A DNA stretch of 64,000 nucleotides from Candidatus Parcubacteria bacterium (GCA_046050355.1 JBJOPW010000003.1:11922-75921); one strand, 5' to 3'. Numbered from the stretch's first letter, positions 47,429 to 59,077 are shown. Notes: generated from the sequence alone by a model not told the origin. Translations and numbers: made by a program.

Positions 47429-47905
47429 TGTATGCAACCCTTCAAAGAGATACCGTAATACTCCATCACCAAGCTTGCTGGACAAAAAGTCTTGTCCTAA
47501 TCCTGTCGGTCGTATCGTACGGCTTTCGTCGGTCGTCACCCAATTCACACGAGCCAGTTCGTGTGCATGGGTCGGGGTGTCCCCTAGGGTACGATAGTCA
47601 GCCGCATTATCGATAGCAAAGAAAAACTCCACTGCATGTTTTCCATTGTCTTGTGTGTAGTTGTGAATATACAGGAGTGAGCCAACCACCGGTATCACTC
47701 CGAGTTCTTCTTCAAGCTCGCGAATCAGTCCGGCTTTAATATCCTCACCCCACTCCAAGTGACCACCAGGTAACACGAGCACGCCCTCCTTGCCGACATG
47801 CTCCACAAGGAGTAACTCGCCCTTATCCAGAATAATGCCACGGCAGCGGACAACAAACTTTTTTTCCATACTCTCTGGGTTACTTACTTCCATAATGCCA
47901 ACCAC
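47426..47905 (-). CDS. NUDIX hydrolase
   Basis: Nudix box GGHLEWGEDIKAGLIRELEEELG. Confidence 0.85.
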   Translation of the reverse strand: MVGIMEVSNPESMEKKFVVRCRGIILDKGELLLVEHVGKEGVLVLPGGHLEWGEDIKAGLIRELEEELGVIPVVGSLLYIHNYTQDNGKHAVEFFFAIDNAADYRTLGDTPTHAHELARVNWVTTDESRTIRPTGLGQDFLSSKLGDGVLRYLFEGLHT

Positions 47906-48246
47906 ACACCAATGTAGTGAACCACAACATAGAGGAAGAAGATGTACCCAAGCACACCAACAATCAGGGTGAGGGCGAGGTAATTAATAATTTCATTGCG
48001 ACGACGCTTCGCTTCATCGATAGTACAGATACCTTTCTTTCGCGTTAGATAGTAGTAGAGAGAACCCATAAGGGCGAGGAGACCGGTGCCACGAAACAAC
48101 CACTTATAGTCACCGTAAAGGGTGTCAGCCAATGATGACGCAAAGCTTGCGCTCGCGACACCAAGAAGTACCAAAATCACCGGTGAGAGACAGCAAAGTG
48201 ACGCCAAGAGTACCGGCAGACTCGAAATCTTAAATATATCTTTCAT
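47884..48246 (-). CDS. small 3-4 TM membrane protein with intramembrane Cys-Cys pair
   Basis: LCCLSPV in TM1. A MerT-like or thiol-disulfide membrane protein is possible but unproven. Confidence 0.35.
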   Translation of the reverse strand: MKDIFKISSLPVLLASLCCLSPVILVLLGVASASFASSLADTLYGDYKWLFRGTGLLALMGSLYYYLTRKKGICTIDEAKRRRNEIINYLALTLIVGVLGYIFFLYVVVHYIGVWLALWK

Positions 48247-48255
48247 ATGTAGCTA

Positions 48256-49461
48256 TTATACGGCAGACAGCCACAACCCATACCCAGCAGCTTCCATCTC
48301 GGCCTGCGGGATAAAGCGAAGCGCCGCCCCATTCATACAGTACCGTTGACCACCCCGGTCGGCTGGACCGTCTGGAAAGACGTGTCCAAGATGCGAGTCA
48401 GCAAAGCGTGAACGAACCTCCGTACGGGTAGAAAAGAGTTTTTTGTCTTCATGGAGCGTGACTACCTCGTCGCTGATGGGACGTACAAACGACGGCCAGC
48501 CAGTTCCCGAATCATACTTGTCTCGTGAAGAAAACAGTGGTTCGCCGGAAACAATATCAACATAAATACCGGCCTCGTAATTTTTATCAAGCTCGCTGGT
48601 ACTCGAGCGCTCGGTGCTATCTTCCTGCGTCACACGGTACGATACGTCAGATAAAATTTGTCGTAACTCCGCTTCCCCAGGCTTTACAAAATTGTTCCAA
48701 CTCTCAGCAGTAAACGGTGTTTGCATAGTATTTTTATTTACGTTACTAACTTCAGGCCCAGTCGAGAATTCAAATGTATCTGCACTACTGCCCCAAACAC
48801 TTTGATAAAACTTAGTTCGTCCTGATGCAGCTCGATAATAATTGTAGCGAACCGGATTTTTGACTGCATAGTCTTGATGGTAATCCTCGGCAGCAAAAAA
48901 TGCTGGCCTTGGTAACAGTGCTATCGTCACTGGTTCGCTATATTTGCCGGCGGCATTAACCGCCTCTATCACTTGTTTAGCCGCCTCCTGTTCTTCGTCT
49001 GTTTCGTAGTACACCGCCGGTGCATACTGTACCCCGCGATCATAAAACGATCCTTCGGCATCAGTGGGGTCGCCGTGTTTCAATATATGTTCAACGAGGT
49101 TTTTGTATGATACCACCGTCGGATCATAGGTGACTTCGACTACCTCACGATGTCCTCCCGCCGCATAGTTTTCGTAGGTAGGACTATCGGTAGTACCGCC
49201 AGCATACCCCGAGACCACAGCAACGACACCAGCCACTGCCTCCAAATCATGCTCAACACACCAGAAACAACCATTGGCGAGGATTGCACTGGCGGTATTG
49301 GTGGCTACGATGTTCACATGCGGCGTAACGACAGGTTCACGCAGGATTGGCGTTGAAACGTTTTCCGGCAACCACAACATCACTCCTAAAACGAGAAAGG
49401 TTCCCATCACCGCAAATCCAACCAAGAGTTTAGGAAGCGGCATAGCAGTCAAAGTACACAC
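48256..49461 (-). CDS. msrAB: bifunctional peptide methionine sulfoxide reductase MsrA-MsrB fusion
   Basis: MsrA GCFWCVE active site in the N-half; MsrB RYCMN/GWPSF motifs in the C-half; signal/TM at the N-terminus. Confidence 0.85.
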
Positions 49462-50231: not shown

Positions 50232-51794
50232 TTACCTGTCTGCCGCTACCTCGATATCTACTACTTCTTTTGTGATAAGTGATTCACTCACGGCAATATT
50301 GTCTTGCAGACGCTTGAGGATTTTTATTTCTTCCCGAGTGAGCTTGCGCTTTTTACTCGCTTTTTCAAGGGATTCTATATCAACCTCAAGATCTGCTTTA
50401 AGCAGGGTAAATGACTTATGCACCATCATCCGAGCTTCGGTGATTTCGGTATGGAGTCTCTTTTTGAAGCCTGTAAACGTGCGCCAACTCCAGAGCAACA
50501 TCAGTCCCGTGAGTACAAGGAGTATGAGACTTGGCACCACAATCGCCAACACCGTTGCTGCTACGACACCAGTATTCAACGTCATCGTCTCGCCAAAGAG
50601 TGATCGGATTGGTGTTTCTTGGGGTGTCGATGTTGTCACTGCCGAAGAGACGTCAGCAATAGTGATTGTCTCAGTGCGAGACAAAATATTACCAGCCTGG
50701 TCGATAGCCCGTATGGTGACACTATGCTCACCGACGGTAAGCCCACTAAACTTGTATATAGGTCTATTACCGTCAATCAAAATTGGTTCGCTGTCACCGA
50801 CAACTACTTCATAGCGCATAATCCCAGAAATGCCATCAAAGGCGGTGAAACCAAACACATTATCGCCGAGATTGGTTACTGCCATTTTTTCTGGTGGCGT
50901 TGTATCAACTTGGAGCTTGTAGTGTTCTATAGCTCCCCAACCGGATGCCGTTTTGTACTGTACATGGAGGTATGAAATGCCCTCAGCCAAATCCTCAATC
51001 GTGCGGCTGGTAATTGGTGGCGTGTAGACTACAGTCGGCACTGAATCTGGTTGTTCGTCTACCAAGAGTCGCATCGCTACCACATCATCAGTCAGGGCAA
51101 AATTAAATGTACCAGTCGTTTCTTTTGACCAACTATCTGGAGCATGGCTCAAGGACTCGACTTTTGATACCGGCTGATTATTTACGCCATCATCAGTCAC
51201 CAAGGTAACAGGCTGTATCCCTGTCCCTGACGGCTTTGTTTCCACCACTGGTGCAGATGGCGTATCAACTACCGGAGCTGGTTCAGTCAGCTGGTACGTC
51301 GCGCTACCGCGGCTTTGTAATATTTCGGTACCCAGTCCATCATTGGCGAGCACTGACGCAGTACTGTAACTGAGTACCGCGGTCCCCACCGCTTTTACTC
51401 TAAAGGTTACCGTCAAAATCGCACCGCCCTGACCGGTATAACCTGGATTGAGGCTAATACCTTCAAAATTGATAGTGCCGGCACTATTTGAAAACGATGG
51501 TTCTACGACCCAGAGTGAAATGAGGGAGTGACTTTTTGACACCGACACCACCTCGAGTTGATTTGATGGAAACGACACTGTACCCGATACTGCATTCACT
51601 GCCTTGTCGCTACTCCCCACCGTGATAGTTGTAACAATCGTCGACCCAACAGCATACGAACCGCTCGTTCGATCAAAGGATAAACTTGCCGCCGCAGTTA
51701 TCGCCGGCATAGCAAATACAACGAGGAAGCCACTAAGGATTACACCAAGCGAGTACGGTAATAAGTACGAGCAAAATAAAGACCGAGTAGACAC
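50232..51794 (-). CDS. membrane-anchored surface protein with cohesin-like N-terminal domain
   Basis: Signal/TM, beta-sandwich-like region (SFDRTSGSYAVGSTIVTTITV...FEGISLNPGYTGQGGAILTVTFRVKAVGTAVLSY), C-terminal TM and coiled-coil tail. Start uncertain (overlaps upstream gene by 55 nt). Confidence 0.45.
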   Translation of the reverse strand: MSTRSLFCSYLLPYSLGVILSGFLVVFAMPAITAAASLSFDRTSGSYAVGSTIVTTITVGSSDKAVNAVSGTVSFPSNQLEVVSVSKSHSLISLWVVEPSFSNSAGTINFEGISLNPGYTGQGGAILTVTFRVKAVGTAVLSYSTASVLANDGLGTEILQSRGSATYQLTEPAPVVDTPSAPVVETKPSGTGIQPVTLVTDDGVNNQPVSKVESLSHAPDSWSKETTGTFNFALTDDVVAMRLLVDEQPDSVPTVVYTPPITSRTIEDLAEGISYLHVQYKTASGWGAIEHYKLQVDTTPPEKMAVTNLGDNVFGFTAFDGISGIMRYEVVVGDSEPILIDGNRPIYKFSGLTVGEHSVTIRAIDQAGNILSRTETITIADVSSAVTTSTPQETPIRSLFGETMTLNTGVVAATVLAIVVPSLILLVLTGLMLLWSWRTFTGFKKRLHTEITEARMMVHKSFTLLKADLEVDIESLEKASKKRKLTREEIKILKRLQDNIAVSESLITKEVVDIEVAADR

Positions 51795-52606
51795 AATACT
51801 AGTATACCGATAATGCGGAGAGACTGTTCATACTGACCAACCCCATTTTGGGGATAGAGTACGGCGGTGCGCGTGTTACCATTTTTATCAACGGCCTTTA
51901 CATAAATCTTTTTATCAAGATTTTGATGCTGTAACTCGTACGGACTTTCTGTTTGCTGGTAGGTACCAAACCAACCTTCTTTCACCGCCATGTAATCAAG
52001 GCCAGAGCCTTTGTCTTCGGTAGCAAATATAAGCGTCCACGCTCCCCCAAACATATCCGGGTCGCGAACAATTTGTGGTGTAAAAGCTTCTGGTAGTTCA
52101 TCATCAACCATTTGTATTGACACCATGGACGGACCAGCCACCACCGCCAGATGCAGGTTTTCTACTTGAGTCTTTGCTGGTGTACCCATCCCATCATGGA
52201 GGAGAATTTCATGAGTAGTGATATCAATCTTGCCCTGACCTAGAGCGGTGGCTTTGAAGTGTAGCGTGATAACGGTTATCGCTTCGCCGCTAAATCCACC
52301 CGGGGTAATACCGCTGAGAACAATTTTTCCTTTGGTTTCTTCTTTTGGTCGTTCTACCCAGAGCGAGACGACCGAATCACCGTCATCAAAATCAACAAAT
52401 TCAAGAAACTCAGTCGGGTACGTAAGGGCCATACCGACAGTATTCATTGTTTGCCCTTCAGTATCAAGCACTACAGCAACTATCACATCATCACCAACCC
52501 GCGAAGTCTTAAAATCACTTTGGAGCGTCAAATCAGCGGCCTGCACATACGGTACCCAAACAAAAAGCGCTAATCCACATATTCCCACTAGTAAAATCTG
52601 TCGCAT
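51740..52606 (-). CDS. membrane-anchored surface protein with cohesin-like domain (paralog of previous)
   Basis: Signal peptide MRQILLVGICGLALFVWVPYVQA, then RVGDDVIVAVVLDTEGQTMNTVGMALTYPTEFLEFVD...GFSGEAITVITLHFKATALG, then C-terminal TM. Confidence 0.45.
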   Translation of the reverse strand: MRQILLVGICGLALFVWVPYVQAADLTLQSDFKTSRVGDDVIVAVVLDTEGQTMNTVGMALTYPTEFLEFVDFDDGDSVVSLWVERPKEETKGKIVLSGITPGGFSGEAITVITLHFKATALGQGKIDITTHEILLHDGMGTPAKTQVENLHLAVVAGPSMVSIQMVDDELPEAFTPQIVRDPDMFGGAWTLIFATEDKGSGLDYMAVKEGWFGTYQQTESPYELQHQNLDKKIYVKAVDKNGNTRTAVLYPQNGVGQYEQSLRIIGILVLCLLGLYFARTYYRTRLV

Positions 52607-52607
52607 A

Positions 52608-53657
52608 CTACCCGGTCCAATTAAATGCCAATATACTAAAGTCGACCAAGTTAATCTTGCCGTCACCATTAAGGTGTTTCGCTTCACGGAGTGCAAACTC
52701 TGGTGTCATTGACCGTAAGTACCAAAAAGCGGCAATAGAAAAATCAACCAGGTTAACCCGACAATCCGCATTAAGATCAGCGCGCGGGCTACACTCTACT
52801 GATGCTTCACGATACACATCTTTGGTGCCAACCGAAAAAGCATACGCCGCACTCTGTGAAGAAATCGTGTCTTCGATACTCGAGCGCGCTTTGGCGTGAT
52901 GCTCCCCCACTTCGAGTACCGATGAATCAAAACTACGCAGGTACACACCATCAGTACCAGCGGTAGTTTTTACAAAAAATTGTTGCTCAGAATTAACTTC
53001 TAGTGTTACGGCAGAGAGCGGGAAGCTCTGCCCAAAGAGGATGATCGGGTTTCCTTTTTTTACTTCAATTTTATCTCCCGTAATGGTAGGAGCGACATAG
53101 ACACTTTCGATTTTGGCAAGAATGTTTCTGGTCACGGTGACTGGAAAGGTGAGCAGTGACGAACGAATCCCTTTGGTGTCTTCACTATAGAGTGAAAAAA
53201 TGTAGGTACCAGCGGCTAGACCCCGCACGAGGACTTGAAACGTAGCGTTCTCATCCGCTATGGTAGTTGCTACTACCTGCGCATCCTTAAGAATCGTCAC
53301 TTCACTGCCTGGATAAGCCCGACCAGTAATCACCACTTGGGCTCCACGGGTTTGACTGCCACCGCCACCTCCGCCGCCGCCACTTGGTGGCGTGTAGACA
53401 CAGGAGAGGGTATTAAACAAACACGATGAGGTACAAGCAAGGACGCCGCTGGTGAATCCGCGTGACTGACACGAGGCACCACCAAAGTTTCCGCTATCAC
53501 ATTCTTCGCCGCTATCAATGATGCCATCCCCACATCCAGGCACTCGCCCTTCTATTATGACTGTACTACTACCAACTCCTTGAGCAAAAATTGTGTTTGT
53601 GTAAGCAAAAACCAGCACTAGTACCAACAACGCACTTCCCGTTAGCAAATACCGCAT
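52608..53657 (-). CDS. secreted protein with Cys-rich N-domain, Gly8 linker, Ig-like middle and C-terminal dockerin-type repeat pair
   Basis: Two dockerin-like Ca-binding repeats: DLNADCRVNLVDFSIAAFWYL and LNGDGKINLVDFSILAFNW (D.N.DG.VN..D...L). Confidence 0.55.
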   Translation of the reverse strand: MRYLLTGSALLVLVLVFAYTNTIFAQGVGSSTVIIEGRVPGCGDGIIDSGEECDSGNFGGASCQSRGFTSGVLACTSSCLFNTLSCVYTPPSGGGGGGGGSQTRGAQVVITGRAYPGSEVTILKDAQVVATTIADENATFQVLVRGLAAGTYIFSLYSEDTKGIRSSLLTFPVTVTRNILAKIESVYVAPTITGDKIEVKKGNPIILFGQSFPLSAVTLEVNSEQQFFVKTTAGTDGVYLRSFDSSVLEVGEHHAKARSSIEDTISSQSAAYAFSVGTKDVYREASVECSPRADLNADCRVNLVDFSIAAFWYLRSMTPEFALREAKHLNGDGKINLVDFSILAFNWTG

Positions 53658-53663
53658 CGCACA

Positions 53664-54623
53664 TTAGCTACTCTTTTTACTTTTTGAGATAATCCACGCG
53701 TTGTATCGTTTGAGCAGAACGATAAGGATGATGATTGCGACCACAACGACGGTGAGGAGTTGCCATGGTACTAGCAAAAACCACAGCGAGTCACTGACCG
53801 TTTGATTGGTTGCGCCATAGACGACAGATAAGTTCGCTTTATACAAACCAAAGTGAAAATCACTGAGCTGATTTTTTACAGTACCAAAAAATGAAGTGGT
53901 GGTAGTAGCGCCTGCGAGACTGCCCCACACTGGTTCAAACTTACGAGTGCTATTAGGCAACACACTTCCTTCGTTTATGTTGGCAGAGATAGTCGCAGCC
54001 GTTCCACCAAACATATTTTTGATCGTGATATCACCAAGCGGTACTACTCGGTCACCGCCACTGTTAGCAAAGCGGTATTGAAAACTAACCGGCAGATCAA
54101 CCTGTAGACGAGAACCGGTAAGGGTAAAATCTTTGATACCCGCCGCTTCAGGAATGTCTCCCGAGACACGCAGGAGAATGAGTACGCCGAGCTTCCCACC
54201 AATTGCTACTTCGCCAGCGGCTTCGATCTCTGGATCTTGTTCGCCCCAAAAGATAGCAGCAAAATACCCACCCGGTTCGGCATCATTTGGAATCGTGATG
54301 GTGAACGGTACTTTTTTGGTTTCGCCGGTGGCCAGTAGGACACTGGTTTCTGTTCCCAGCCAGGTAGCCAGCCCATCGGACCCGCCAATAAACTTTGGTG
54401 AGCCGGTATCACCACTTGGTTCAAAGTTTTCAAACGATGAGAAAAAGGTCTTCGATCCAGCCTGCTCATTAAGCATCTCAAGTTCACCATGGAGGGTTTG
54501 TCCGGGGTCACCAGTCACCTCAATAGTCACCGGCGAAATCGTCAGGGCCTTGGCTTCATGGTTCCCCACAAAAAAACATAACAAAAGTGCTGCGACCAAT
54601 GTTATGTTTTTGAGTGATTTCAT
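53664..54623 (-). CDS. DUF916/CscA-like cell-surface protein (signal peptide, beta-rich ectodomain, C-terminal TM anchor)
   Basis: MKSLKNITLVAALLLCFFVGNHEAKA signal, ISPVTIEVTGDPGQT start of ectodomain, C-terminal TM plus basic tail KRYNAWIISKSKKSS. Confidence 0.45.
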   Translation of the reverse strand: MKSLKNITLVAALLLCFFVGNHEAKALTISPVTIEVTGDPGQTLHGELEMLNEQAGSKTFFSSFENFEPSGDTGSPKFIGGSDGLATWLGTETSVLLATGETKKVPFTITIPNDAEPGGYFAAIFWGEQDPEIEAAGEVAIGGKLGVLILLRVSGDIPEAAGIKDFTLTGSRLQVDLPVSFQYRFANSGGDRVVPLGDITIKNMFGGTAATISANINEGSVLPNSTRKFEPVWGSLAGATTTTSFFGTVKNQLSDFHFGLYKANLSVVYGATNQTVSDSLWFLLVPWQLLTVVVVAIIILIVLLKRYNAWIISKSKKSS

Positions 54624-54668
54624 GAGAGGAATAATACCCTAATTTGGCGCCCCTGCAAGTATGGAGGC

Positions 54669-55736
54669 TTAGAAGTTGGCCGTAGCTACGTAGGTTACCG
54701 CGCCTGTATATGAACCGGCTTCAGTGTTCGCGGTAATGTTAGCAATATAACGAGCTGAGTATGTCGTGTTCGCCGATGCCCCTGAAGCTGAAGCGATAAT
54801 ATCAGGGAAGGCAGCAGTATCAAATGCAAATCCAGCAGCGGCGTAGGGAGCAACCACCGCACCAGAGCCACCGGTGGCTGTCATACGAAGACCAAATTGC
54901 TCAGTACCAACTGATGAGGCAGTGTTTGCTGCACCAATTGCCGTGATGGTATTGGCCCCCGAGGTGAGCGTAGTACCACCAACGGTCATGGTGTAGCCAT
55001 TGGCGGCGTTTGTACCAACAATCACATTGTGTGCTTCACCTTCAGAACCTGCACCGGCACCAGTACCATCCGCAAAACGAGCAGCCGAAGCTGATAGTGT
55101 GCCAAAACCAATGGTAGTGTCAGAAATACTGAATGTCAGTGACTGGGGCACGGTAGCGGTAATATCAACTTGGTTACTCGTCAACATATTAACGGTCATA
55201 TCACCCGCATCACCAAACGCCCCACTAATCGAGATTACGTATGATCCCGGTGTTGATGGGTTGATTGCATTAGTTCCATCCATGGTGATGATGATTTTAT
55301 CGCTTGGTGCTACAGCGGCTGCACCAACACCGTCAGTAGGCGCCGTGAGCGTCAAGACGCGGTTCTGTGTGGACGAGAATGCCGCTCCCCACGCTGTGGC
55401 TGAAGCCGAGGCGGCCAATGTTTCTGTACTTTCTGCACCAGTGGTTGCACCGTGAGTAAATGTCACGGTACCAATCGTTTTACTCGTGAAGTTGAAGTCT
55501 GACGGGAAGGTAATGATGATCGTATCAGTGTTGTTGTTGGCTCCAGTCGGGGTCGTAAAGCGAATGGTATGGGTTGAGGTTGCGCTCACCGTCAATGACG
55601 ACATCGTGTCTGAAGCATTGGTGATCGATGCAGCCCTTGCCACCTGCATTGGCACGATCGCCAACATAATAATGGCGACACTGAGAAGCAAACTGATGGT
55701 CTGCGTACTGTAATTTTGTAAAACGGATAAACTCAT
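54669..55736 (-). CDS. secreted WxL-like (CscB/C-type) surface protein
   Basis: Signal peptide. C-terminal ~170 aa with QSLTFSISDTTIGFGTLS, GTEQFGLRMTA and terminal GSYTGAVTYVATANF blocks, paralogous to 58088-59077. Confidence 0.5.
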   Translation of the reverse strand: MSLSVLQNYSTQTISLLLSVAIIMLAIVPMQVARAASITNASDTMSSLTVSATSTHTIRFTTPTGANNNTDTIIITFPSDFNFTSKTIGTVTFTHGATTGAESTETLAASASATAWGAAFSSTQNRVLTLTAPTDGVGAAAVAPSDKIIITMDGTNAINPSTPGSYVISISGAFGDAGDMTVNMLTSNQVDITATVPQSLTFSISDTTIGFGTLSASAARFADGTGAGAGSEGEAHNVIVGTNAANGYTMTVGGTTLTSGANTITAIGAANTASSVGTEQFGLRMTATGGSGAVVAPYAAAGFAFDTAAFPDIIASASGASANTTYSARYIANITANTEAGSYTGAVTYVATANF

Positions 55737-55879
55737 ACGTTGGTGATAGAACTAAACAATAAATGCATGTAAATGAGACAGGTCAAAGTGACCACTTTTC
55801 CCATAGACCATTATACCCCACCAAGCCACGCTGGAACTGTTTACCTGTGTAGAAGATAGCCGTGTGGTCATGGTAGAAT

Positions 55880-57103
55880 GTGACCATCTATACTATGCTC
55901 CGAAACGTATTTGGACTCATTTCAACCGCCAACAAAGTCTTCAGTGTTCTTTTGTTATTCGCCCTTTCGGTGGCGATTTTTCGCTATGTCTATGCGGCTA
56001 CTCCGAACCCCGGACACAATTTTAGCGCGATTGGCGGTGGAGCAGTCCAAGGTGATCTGCTCTATGGTTCAGCGGCCGATACGCTCTCAGCTCTCCCTAA
56101 AGATACTAACGCTACTCGTTACCTCTCAAATACTGGAGCGAGTAACAACCCCGCCTGGGCGCAGGTGAATCTCACAAATGGTGTGACAGGAATTTTGCCG
56201 GGTGCAAATGGCGGCACCGGCAATGGCTTCTTTGCCGTCAGCGGACCCGCTACTGCCCTGCGCACCTTTACCTTCCCTAATGCTGACGCCACCGTCCTCA
56301 CAAGTAACGCCGCGGTGACAGTGGCTCAAGGAGGCACCGGCCTGACGACCTTGACTGTCAATAACCTCCTCGTTGGTAACGGGACCGGTAACGTTACCTT
56401 TATTGCCCCGTCAACTGATGGCAATATCCTCCAATCAAACGGCACCACCTGGATTAGTACAACGGGAGGTGTGATTCACGGCCGCCAAACCCTCACCTCA
56501 GGTACTACCTATACACCAACCACCGGCACCAAAGAAATTTGGATCCGCATGTGGGGTGGTGGTGGTGGTGGTGGTGGTTGTTCTGCTGTGGCTGGTTGTG
56601 CCGGCGGAGGTGGCGGTTCTGGCGGTTACGCTGAATATTACCTCACCGGTGTCACCGGAACCTATACCTATGCTATTGGTGCCGCCGGAGCTGGGAACTC
56701 AGGTGCGGCCGGAGGAAACGGTGGTAACACCACCTTTAACACCGGTGTTACCACCATCACTGCCTTTGGTGGTACGGGTGGAACCTTTACCGCCGGTACA
56801 GCCGCGATCAAATTTATGCCTGGTGGAGCTGGTGGCGTGATTTCAACCAATGGTCACGTTAACGGTGCTGGCGCCCCAGGAGACAACGGTATGACCAGTA
56901 CCGTAAACACGGTGGTGATGTCAGGCGCTGGAGGTGCTACTGCTCTTGGGGGCGCTGGTAACGGTCGTAACACCACCGGTGCCGGGAACGCCGCCATCGC
57001 CAACACCGGCTCTGGTGGTGGTGGCGCTGCCGCTGCGGCCGCCACGGCCAATGCTGGTGGCGCTGGTGCTGCTGGTGTCATTATTATCACTGAATTTAGA
57101 TAA
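55880..57103 (+). CDS. secreted glycine-rich repetitive protein (beta-solenoid / tail-fibre-like)
   Basis: Signal anchor, then GxGxT-type repeats (LPGANGGTGNGFFAVSG..., VAQGGTGLTTLTV), a Gly8 run, GGxGG repeats to the C-terminus. Confidence 0.5.
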   Translation: MTIYTMLRNVFGLISTANKVFSVLLLFALSVAIFRYVYAATPNPGHNFSAIGGGAVQGDLLYGSAADTLSALPKDTNATRYLSNTGASNNPAWAQVNLTNGVTGILPGANGGTGNGFFAVSGPATALRTFTFPNADATVLTSNAAVTVAQGGTGLTTLTVNNLLVGNGTGNVTFIAPSTDGNILQSNGTTWISTTGGVIHGRQTLTSGTTYTPTTGTKEIWIRMWGGGGGGGGCSAVAGCAGGGGGSGGYAEYYLTGVTGTYTYAIGAAGAGNSGAAGGNGGNTTFNTGVTTITAFGGTGGTFTAGTAAIKFMPGGAGGVISTNGHVNGAGAPGDNGMTSTVNTVVMSGAGGATALGGAGNGRNTTGAGNAAIANTGSGGGGAAAAAATANAGGAGAAGVIIITEFR

Positions 57104-57105
57104 CA

Positions 57106-58110
57106 ATGACTGCACGTCTGTACCACCAACCAAGCCCGCTCTTACTCTTTCCAGTCTTCTTACTGCTGATTATTTTTTGTATACCAACTACCCACGGACA
57201 AACACCAACAGAAACACCCGACATCGCCACACCGGTGGTTTCTACACCAAACTTTCTACTCGATACACCCATTTTCACAAACGTTGAACAGTCTGCCGTG
57301 CTGTTGACGCCGACGTTTTCTGATAATAGTACCAACCTTGCCTTTTATCTTCGTTGCCCGCACACTCTGTGTGGGAATGAAGACCTGTCGGCATCACCGT
57401 ATTACCAATTTAGTGCCGAAAATATTGGTCGCGGTAGCCTCCCCTTTAGTGAGTACTGGGCGCCACCCACTGCCACCGACTATGCGGTAATTGAATATGC
57501 CAACGACAACCAGCAATTTAGTTGCTCGGGACTGACGTTTGAGGCCTGTCTTGCTGATACACATTTTGTGCAGGTATTTTATTTTGCTGTGGTTGACGAT
57601 AGTAGCACCATCACCCCCGAACTACGCGCCGAAAAAGAACGTCTCAACAATCCAAATCCGCTGAGTGCAGAGGCAGATACCGCAGCCGTCAGTGAAGAGC
57701 TGCGGTTACTCTCGATCAATCTCTCCTCTACTTCTATCAGTTCTGACCTCGATAACGGACTGATCGTGACCGCTTCACTCGATGGCATCCCAAGTGTCGT
57801 ACTCGCCTCTGATAGTACCAGTAGCACGGCAACAGCGACAGACAGTACTCCTGAAAGCAGTTCTCCGATCAAGGATTTTTTTGCTGATGTTGTTGAAACG
57901 GTAGTGGGATTATTTACCGAACCAGACACGCCTCCCCCACCAACTGAAACGGTCACACCTCCTGAGTCTGTCCCGCCACCAGTCACCCCAAGCGACCTTG
58001 AACCAACCACAACCAACGACACACCATCGCCATCTTTTCTCGATACGGTACAATCATTCATATCGACGGATGTAACCACCCCAGACGATGTCACGACTGC
58101 TTCATTCTAA
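57106..58110 (+). CDS. secreted S/T/P-rich hypothetical protein
   Basis: Signal peptide, Cys-containing middle domain, PPPP/Ser-Thr-rich C-terminal half. Confidence 0.45.
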   Translation: MTARLYHQPSPLLLFPVFLLLIIFCIPTTHGQTPTETPDIATPVVSTPNFLLDTPIFTNVEQSAVLLTPTFSDNSTNLAFYLRCPHTLCGNEDLSASPYYQFSAENIGRGSLPFSEYWAPPTATDYAVIEYANDNQQFSCSGLTFEACLADTHFVQVFYFAVVDDSSTITPELRAEKERLNNPNPLSAEADTAAVSEELRLLSINLSSTSISSDLDNGLIVTASLDGIPSVVLASDSTSSTATATDSTPESSSPIKDFFADVVETVVGLFTEPDTPPPPTETVTPPESVPPPVTPSDLEPTTTNDTPSPSFLDTVQSFISTDVTTPDDVTTASF

Positions 58111-59077
58111 AATTATCGCCGGCCTCCTCATCTGCGGCCTCATTATGCTTGTCACCCCGCAGACAAATGCCGGTACGCTTTCATGTTCGATTACCACTAA
58201 TGCCGCTTGTACCCAAACCAAGATTCTTCGTCTCTCAGATACCACCAACGCCCACGCTGAACTTCCAAGTCAATCAACTGCTGCTTATGATAACAATGTG
58301 GTCTGCTGCACGAACGTCATTGGTCTTGGCAACTCTTGCGCGGGCACCAATGCTATTGCGGTCAAACTATCCGCCACCACCAATGCCCACGCCGAACAAA
58401 ACACCGAAGCCAACTATGCTGGTAACAATGCCTGTATCTCGGTTCCAACTGGTGGCAGTGTGACCGTTGGTTACCAGGCGTCGAACTGCACCGGCTACGA
58501 CACCACTATCGGCTCAATCGAATCACTCACAAACTCCCACGTCGGTGATGCAGCAGCGTATACCACCAAAATCTGCGCGACCGCCTCGGGTGTGCCGCAG
58601 ACACTCGTCTTTAGTATCTCTGATAACAGTATTGGGTTTGGTTCACTCTCACCGGTCCAAACCAGGTACGCCACAGGAGATACCGTCGGTGCTACCAGTG
58701 ACAGTGCTGACGCACATACTATTTCTATCGCCAGTAACGCAACAGGAGGTTATAGTATGACGATTAGTGGACAGACCCTGACCTCTGGGGCTCATACTAT
58801 TACTGCCATCGGCGGAACGGCCGTTGCCCCTGCTGTAGGTAACGAGCAATTTGGTGTACGCTTGAGCGTTAACTCCGGCACTGGCTCAGCAGCTTCACCA
58901 TATAACGGCAGTAATTGGGCACTTGATACCGGTGCCTTCCCAGACACTATAGTGACCGGAAGTGGTGACTCGGTAACTACGGTGTATGGCGCCCGGTATA
59001 TGGTAAACACGGCCACACTCACCGAACCCGGCAACTACAACGCTGTTATCACATATACTGTTACGGCTACATTCTAA
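58088..59077 (+). CDS. secreted WxL-like surface protein (paralog of 54669-55736) with Cys-rich N-domain
   Basis: QTLVFSISDNSIGFGSLS, GNEQFGVRLSV, GNYNAVITYTVTATF blocks align with 54669-55736. N-half has two TTNAHAE repeats and 11 Cys. Confidence 0.5.
   Translation: MSRLLHSKIIAGLLICGLIMLVTPQTNAGTLSCSITTNAACTQTKILRLSDTTNAHAELPSQSTAAYDNNVVCCTNVIGLGNSCAGTNAIAVKLSATTNAHAEQNTEANYAGNNACISVPTGGSVTVGYQASNCTGYDTTIGSIESLTNSHVGDAAAYTTKICATASGVPQTLVFSISDNSIGFGSLSPVQTRYATGDTVGATSDSADAHTISIASNATGGYSMTISGQTLTSGAHTITAIGGTAVAPAVGNEQFGVRLSVNSGTGSAASPYNGSNWALDTGAFPDTIVTGSGDSVTTVYGARYMVNTATLTEPGNYNAVITYTVTATF

Follow-up and report, generated by a model that had tools for sequence, protein, structure and literature searches.

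A predicted donor-strand pilus locus with a cohesin-dockerin membrane anchor in a Parcubacteria-like bacterium

The closest described counterpart of the gene cluster considered here is the Pam pilus of the candidate phyla radiation (CPR). Troman et al. 2026 (bioRxiv 10.64898/2026.03.03.709456) solved two filaments of the CPR bacterium Ca. Mycosynbacter amalyticus by cryo-electron microscopy (cryo-EM), in which the C-terminal pilin domain accepts the linker of a neighbouring subunit. The authors predicted that PamC and PamD are membrane-tethered PapD-like chaperones, that PamT is the tip pilin, and that PamR, an RbmA-like protein with an N-terminal strand and a C-terminal transmembrane (TM) helix, is the membrane-anchored terminator. 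They also noted a tail-fibre-like protein in pam neighbourhoods and ATP synthase genes as typical neighbours; cohesin, dockerin, WxL and Paceibacteria are not mentioned in the main text of that paper. Here we describe eight consecutive open reading frames (ORFs), O1 to O8, at positions 50232-59077 of a 64,000-nucleotide stretch of DNA (the window) from Candidatus Parcubacteria bacterium (GCA_046050355.1, JBJOPW010000003.1:11922-75921). The host is an ultra-small Patescibacteria organism, Parcubacteria/Paceibacteria-like, and the island is probably a Pam-type, chaperone-assisted donor-strand pilus locus, whose thin surface fibre would be fastened to the membrane by a cohesin-dockerin pair.

A second point of comparison is the WxL/Csc system of Lactobacillales and Bacillales, in which WxL proteins are paired with WxLIP (DUF916, DUF3324 and a C-terminal TM helix). 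A hairpin strand of WxLIP is predicted to make the beta-sandwich of WxL complete (PMC10599100), which by analogy would be the same principle as strand complementation by a chaperone. WxL proteins have been described as peptidoglycan-bound and not as filament-forming (PMC10599100, PMC1534035). The original prediction for the window assigned the island to this WxL/DUF916 (Csc-type) family in part. None of the eight proteins matches PF13731, DUF916 (PF06030) or DUF3324 (PF11797) in Pfam at E <= 1, and the dual WxL motif is absent; the NCBIfam scan gave none of these families either. As family membership the assignment does not hold in these scans, yet it appears to capture a real resemblance in fold and organisation.

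How is the locus built, and is it conserved? All eight predicted ORFs are present, five on the minus strand (O1 to O5) and three on the plus strand (O6 to O8). Each protein has one N-terminal hydrophobic 19-mer (Kyte-Doolittle at least 1.6), as expected from the earlier claim of a signal peptide or signal anchor on every product, and the hydropathy scan of the eight proteins found a C-terminal membrane segment in addition in O1, O2 and O4. From a scan of one genome per species, 69 related loci were located by tblastn and ORF mapping. In approximately 50 of these the core order is the same: a tip-like or giant pilin-domain protein is followed by O5, O4, O3, O2 and O1, with O5 to O1 on one strand. 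The island of the window is flanked, as predicted, by SIMPL and VF530 (the DUF2132 of the original prediction), and also by IMPDH; among the 69 loci neither these genes nor Msr are conserved as neighbours, and the flanks differ. Because the order and strand of O5 to O1 are kept in about 50 of the 69 genomes while the flanks vary, the grouping is not due to chance, and the view of the island as one co-conserved surface-protein unit is upheld for this core.

The predicted major pilin is O5 (54669..55736, minus strand, 355 aa), which consists of a signal peptide, an N-terminal beta-sandwich domain (55173-55631), a linker, SNQVDITATVP (55140-55172), and a C-terminal Pam-pilin domain (54672-55139). 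The latter assignment comes from the NCBIfam model NF058581 (CPR_Pam_pilin_C, 'Pam pilus system pilin subunit'; cut-off 55 bits), which O5 matches with 79.2 bits and O8 with 64.7 bits. There are more than 1200 homologues of O5, with identities of 67-94% among the 120 matches listed. An AlphaFold2 monomer model of O5 (mean predicted local distance difference test score, pLDDT, 79.8) has two beta-rich domains, and the sole stretch with a pLDDT below 50, residues 189-197, is the linker. The linker is also conserved: the consensus D/N-Q-V-x-[VI]-[TS]-A-x-V is found in a pilin of approximately 350 aa in 49 of the 69 loci. We propose that the linker is the donor strand.

The second pilin-domain protein, O8 (58088..59077, plus strand, 329 aa), is a predicted tip subunit. 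O5 and O8 were said to be paralogous WxL-like proteins; they share a C-terminal domain that aligns between them (34% identity overall), but the WxL motif occurs once in O8 and not at all in O5. In O8 an atypical linker, KICATASGVPQT (58568-58603), precedes the C-terminal Pam-pilin domain. The N-terminal domain (58088-58600) has nine cysteines and three spaced T(N/T)(A/S)H repeats, which read LSDTTNAHAE, LSATTNAHAE, and ESLTNSHVGD. The linker before the pilin domain of small O8-class proteins holds a conserved cysteine (KIC[GA]TA), which might staple the linker and so block its donation. By the logic of chaperone-usher pili, an acceptor domain that lacks the canonical linker beside it would make a protein tip-like. 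O8 is a two-domain protein, unlike the single-domain tip pilin PamT, and the PamT equivalog model NF058579 (cut-off 240 bits) is not reached by O5 (39.5 bits) or O8 (32.2 bits).

In many relatives the place of O8 is taken by giant upstream proteins of 800-2900 aa, with the Pam pilin domain at the extreme C-terminus. Examples are found at L043:109-8757, L045:3-8753, L055:80-8791 and L036:786-4394, among others, and the L036 protein has a MAM domain. The canonical major-pilin linker is replaced by unrelated sequences in these giants, as it is in the O8 class. The giant proteins are candidate variable tip adhesins and host-recognition determinants.

What would terminate such a fibre? The predicted terminator or adaptor is O3 (52608..53657, minus strand, 349 aa), in which a signal peptide and a Cys-rich module are separated by a poly-Gly linker from two immunoglobulin (Ig)-like domains and a putative C-terminal dockerin (52611-52781). 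Pfam identifies a Big_6 domain in O3 (E 6.5e-6) and a Cys-rich repeat. The poly-Gly run (8 Gly, region 53340-53370) is present in most members of the O3 family and reaches approximately 16 Gly in the relatives that were read. The protein had been predicted to carry dockerin repeats; a duplicated calcium-loop-like segment is visible in it (DLNADCRVNLVDFS / HLNGDGKINLVDFS), and although O3 itself is sub-threshold, the Dockerin_1 model is matched at E <= 0.01 by 34 of the 42 proteins of its family, the best with 3.6e-11, which supports the dockerin reading for the family. Big_6 is likewise matched by 34 of the 42.

The mature N-terminus of the O3 family, directly past the signal peptide, repeats the linker motif of the major pilin. 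The strand reads ITVEITATVPGCGDG in many relatives and STVIIEGRVPGCGDG in the window, where the donor-strand-like segment STVIIEGRV lies at 53541-53567 on the minus strand. From 52 pilin linkers a position matrix was derived and run against all 1423 ORFs in the loci that reach 100 aa. Proteins of the O3 family accounted for 20 of the 25 best hits outside the pilins, with the match at ORF residues 22-57, just past the signal peptide. Within a locus, linker and O3 strand resemble each other more than permuted pairs do (2 of 10000 permutations), a figure that ignores phylogenetic relatedness and is inflated by shared ancestry. A donor strand without an acceptor domain would, again by chaperone-usher logic, make O3 terminator-like.

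Two predicted cohesin proteins are encoded next to O3. O2 was given as an ORF at 51740-52696, but its probable start is Met31 at 52606 (51740..52606, minus strand), in agreement with the source contig, a JGI metagenome contig of 75 kb, where the gene is called with 288 aa. It has a signal peptide, a cohesin domain (52202-52510), an Ig-like/OmpL47-type domain and a C-terminal TM segment (51761-51826). The match to Pfam Cohesin (PF00963; E 2.7e-5, 24.8 bits) is just above the gathering score of 24.1; 12 of 37 members of the O2 family match Cohesin (best 2.1e-9), and the family profile finds the cellulosomal scaffoldin cohesin structures 5aoz and 5m2o. The larger anchor, O1 (50232..51794, minus strand, 520 aa), has a signal peptide, a cohesin-like domain (51327-51689) recognised by its paralogy with O2, Ig-like domains, a TM segment (50484-50582) and a cytoplasmic tail of approximately 80 aa (50235-50483). 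O1 itself has no direct Pfam Cohesin match; its N-terminal domain is paralogous to that of O2 (BLASTP E 4e-15, 133 aa), and in its family Cohesin is matched by 12 of 31 members (best 3.8e-8) and Big_13 by 22 of 31. The claim of two paralogous, membrane-anchored cohesin-like proteins is supported. The O1 tail, which follows the TM segment, is charged, and its family consensus KRxLTxEE...L..L......AE..I.KE..DI implies a cytoplasmic partner or a signalling role. The long O1 ORF and the end of O2 share 55 nt (51740-51794), an overlap also present in a related locus (L003); the source annotation starts O1 28 residues later, whereby the signal peptide would be lost.

The association of dockerin and cohesin is consistent across relatives. 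When loci with at least 2 kb of sequence downstream of O3 are counted, a dockerin-ended O3 and adjacent cohesin genes are both present in 47, both missing in seven, and two have the dockerin only; one apparent mismatch was a pattern miss. Fisher's test gives p ~1e-6, a value that ignores phylogenetic relatedness. This is a co-occurrence of genes, from which we infer that the two proteins would bind each other. Two of the loci that lack the dockerin are instructive. The O3 homologues of L031 (1056-2123) and L070 (2363-3274) keep the strand and the Ig domains but have a C-terminal TM segment of their own in place of the dockerin, and there are no cohesin genes nearby. This is effectively the layout of PamR, whose N-terminal strand, Ig-like domains and TM helix are combined in none of the eight proteins of the window. 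In loci of the L066 type, the dockerin protein has a pilin-like domain at its N-terminal end (28% identity across 163 aa, E 0.002). Together with the co-occurrence, these variants suggest that the dockerin and the cohesin-TM proteins stand in for a direct membrane anchor.

The remaining member of the core is O4 (53664..54623, minus strand, 319 aa), a predicted membrane-anchored pilus chaperone. In a model based on 32 homologues (pLDDT 82.5), a signal peptide is followed by two beta-sandwich domains, and residues 287-318 form a C-terminal helix (TM helix at 53697-53765). At the level of the fold only, O4 fits a chaperone of the PapD/FimC kind that has a signal peptide and ends in a TM helix. 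In the motif EVAIGGKLGVLILLRV (54165-54212) most residues are invariant or nearly so. O4 had been called a DUF916-like TM-anchored protein; the TM anchor is there, whereas the DUF916 relationship belongs with the unmatched families above. An exhaustive profile search (E <= 1e-3) places 7464 representatives in the O4 family at 50% identity, and both O4 and O5 have hundreds to thousands of homologues that carry no annotation. The sequences and family profiles of O4 and O5 gave no useful match to PDB sequences. PapD_N and PapD_C (PF00345/PF02753) have no Pfam match among the eight proteins at E <= 1, and there is no usher-sized ORF in the locus.

A variant layout is found in L061, L064, L065, L066 and L068, where three O4-like paralogues accompany a PamT-like pilin and the dockerin and cohesin genes lie upstream of the pilin. 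The chaperone-like genes of these loci match no NCBIfam model. Since an NCBIfam scan of one of them, L064, gave no match to the PamC, PamD or PamR models, O4 is not tied to PamC/D by a curated model.

On the basis of these observations, the following mechanism can be proposed. All components would cross the membrane by the Sec pathway. O4, tethered by its C-terminal helix, would act like PapD/FimC or a WxLIP chaperone and hold new pilins: it would insert a strand, for which the largely invariant segment EVAIGGKLGV is a candidate, into the pilin's incomplete C-terminal domain. O8, whose head is Cys-rich and whose acceptor domain follows an atypical linker, would start the fibre as its tip, a role that the giant proteins would take over in relatives. 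O5 would then polymerise, in that the strand of the inter-domain linker (QVDITATV) of each subunit would be given to the C-terminal domain of the one before it; the polarity of the filament is part of this proposal. Because it has the pilin strand motif at its mature N-terminus and no acceptor domain, O3 would cap the cell-proximal end. Its C-terminal dockerin would bind the cohesins of O2 and O1, so that the fibre is anchored without an usher, a sortase or an outer membrane.

Several results weigh against this proposal. O4 has no sequence-level match to PapD, to DUF916/DUF3324 or to any Pam chaperone model, and its link with PamC/PamD is a putative one, drawn from fold and gene context. O3 scored 17.9 bits with Dockerin_1 (PF00404), below the cut-off of 22.9, and its strand in the window, STVIIEGRV, is a poorer match to the linker than that of many relatives. 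The permutation and Fisher figures carry the reservation about relatedness made above. By fold, O5 matches generic Ig-like proteins of several kinds, namely coat proteins, adhesins and pilins. The expected neighbours are also missing, as there are no ATP synthase genes within 10 kb of the island, and a PamR-like protein is not recognised in it; the published terminator differs from O3, and no cohesin or dockerin is reported with it.

Which other explanations could account for the locus? One is a non-filamentous complex of the WxL type, along the lines of the original prediction, in which a WxLIP-like O4 holds O5 and O8 by strand complementation and the cohesin-dockerin pair forms a separate docking platform. 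We regard this as unlikely. In addition to the failure of the Pfam WxL, DUF916 and DUF3324 models and the missing dual motif, both O5 and O8 exceed the cut-off of the Pam pilin model, which was founded on the filaments solved by cryo-EM, and the conserved linker and its copy in O3 have no role unless the subunits polymerise. Another is that O5 is a cell-envelope coat or S-layer-like protein with envelope biogenesis factors as neighbours. However, O5 lies above the cut-off for the Pam pilin C domain, its two-domain-plus-linker layout matches that of PamA/PamB, and a coat leaves both the chaperone-like partner and the strand motif shared with O3 unexplained; this reading seems to us quite improbable.

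The cohesin and dockerin assignments would also fit a miniature cellulosome-like scaffold, on which O1 and O2 present enzymes or binding proteins that bear dockerins and serve to degrade polymers, while the pilin-like genes just happen to lie alongside. Yet neither Pfam nor NCBIfam finds a glycoside hydrolase or other enzyme domain in the eight proteins, the sole dockerin protein of the locus has Ig-like domains and a pilin-linker-like N-terminus, and the cohesin and dockerin genes are fixed directly behind pilin and chaperone genes in approximately 50 species, all of which makes such a scaffold very improbable. We give still less credence to a chance cluster of unrelated secreted proteins without a joint function. 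O7 has no homologues past close relatives and no more than 12 of the 69 loci contain O6, as such a cluster would have it, but for the core the idea is contradicted by a six-gene synteny in some 50 species-level genomes with unrelated flanks. Sortase-assembled pili and type IV pili were rejected as well: the eight proteins have no LPXTG-like motif and no class III prepilin signal. For these two, as for the cellulosome (there is one cohesin per protein), rejection follows from the lack of the defining motifs or enzymes.

The Pam-type donor-strand pilus with a cohesin-dockerin anchor remains the favoured interpretation, and the comparison with the published pam loci shows where the two systems agree and differ. 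Both are restricted to CPR and have Sec-exported two-domain pilins that share a C-terminal domain, with the inter-domain linker as the proposed donor strand. In both, a predicted PapD-like chaperone with a C-terminal TM tether is found without usher or sortase, and a tail-fibre-like gene is nearby. The window has one chaperone gene in contrast to PamC plus PamD, and the function of terminator and anchor appears to be split between O3, which has the dockerin, and the cohesin membrane proteins O2 and O1. The relatives described here are Parcubacteria/Paceibacterota and others, whereas the paper stresses Saccharimonadia and Microgenomatia. The original prediction held that the apparatus had not been described as a unit. 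This no longer applies to the pilin and chaperone core, published in 2026, but it does apply to the proposed cohesin-dockerin anchoring module, which appears to be a previously undescribed use of the pair in a pilus locus.

The WxL/Csc clusters differ in having an LPXTG (CscD-type) partner, which has no counterpart here, and belong to a different phylum. The chaperone-usher pili of Gram-negative bacteria (Pap, Fim, Csu, CFA/I) resemble the locus in the fold of O4 only: there is no usher or outer membrane here, the chaperone is membrane-tethered, and donation by an N-terminal extension is replaced by an internal linker between two domains, except in O3. Clostridial cellulosomal pairs share the Cohesin and Dockerin_1 matches, the duplicated calcium-loop-like segment and the similarity to scaffoldin cohesins. 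In contrast to these pairs, the cohesins here are on single-pass membrane proteins with no enzymes, and the dockerin is carried by a protein whose putative donor strand is like that of a pilin, so that the proposed function is to anchor a fibre and not to assemble enzymes.

The label of nearly every related locus is that of a CPR metagenome-assembled genome or of an unclassified bacterium. Most labels are Parcubacteria/Paceibacterota, Kaiser-, Nomura-, Taylor-, Harrison-, Magasanik-, Falkow-, Gracili-, and Peregrinibacteria. A minority is titled 'uncultured Gammaproteobacteria', 'Pseudomonadales' or 'Bacillota' (L013, L021 on a 2.7-kb contig, L025, L043-L045, L051, and others). These labels are probably errors of binning or automated taxonomy; if any of them is genuine, the system reaches outside CPR.

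Two further genes of the island encode accessory proteins. O6 (55880..57103, plus strand) is a glycine-rich, tail-fibre-like protein with an N-terminal signal anchor; the predicted glycine-rich character was confirmed by a glycine content of 22% and by matches to Gly_rich_2 in Pfam (E 1.7e-11) and to phage tail-fibre families (phrog_863 'tail fiber assembly', E 8.3e-30). Its presence beside pilus genes in 12 of the 69 loci becomes 14 of 71 when two copies of the window's contig are counted. O7 (57106..58110, plus strand) is an acidic secreted protein with 43 acidic and eight basic residues, and is rich in Ser, Thr and Pro as had been claimed (36% in total). It is poorly conserved, with no match to Pfam, NCBIfam or phage families, and is found in the closest relatives only (three related loci, or four with the window's contig). 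O7 and O8 overlap by 23 nt (58088-58110). A scan of the island for promoters and terminators found 12 where 10.9 are expected, which is the background level.

Next to the island, the region 47884-49461 encodes a fused MsrA-MsrB methionine sulfoxide reductase with an N-terminal membrane segment and, adjoining it, a small membrane protein that is MerT-like and has a CC motif. The two might form an extracytoplasmic protein-repair pair beside the surface-protein island.

It is tempting to go one step further. Not only might the cohesin-dockerin pair anchor a donor-strand pilus through O3, but the O4-type chaperone, WxLIP and PapD might be forms of one ancient strand-complementation machinery that spans CPR, Gram-positive and Gram-negative bacteria. 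This combined proposition is advanced tentatively, as possible rather than probable. Should there be one ancient machinery, it may be that WxL clusters, too, form polymers or work by genuine donor-strand chemistry. The locus connects three surface systems that were treated apart from one another, namely Pam, WxL/Csc and chaperone-usher pili.

CPR bacteria represent a large share of bacterial diversity and apparently live attached to other cells. To our knowledge, the means of this attachment are mostly unknown beyond a few cultured Saccharibacteria, and a fibre of the kind proposed here might serve in attachment to a host. The anchoring suggested for it needs no usher, sortase or outer membrane, and would give cohesin and dockerin a structural role outside cellulosomes. 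The distribution of the locus suggests that fibres of the Pam type occur widely, far outside the lineages from which they were described.

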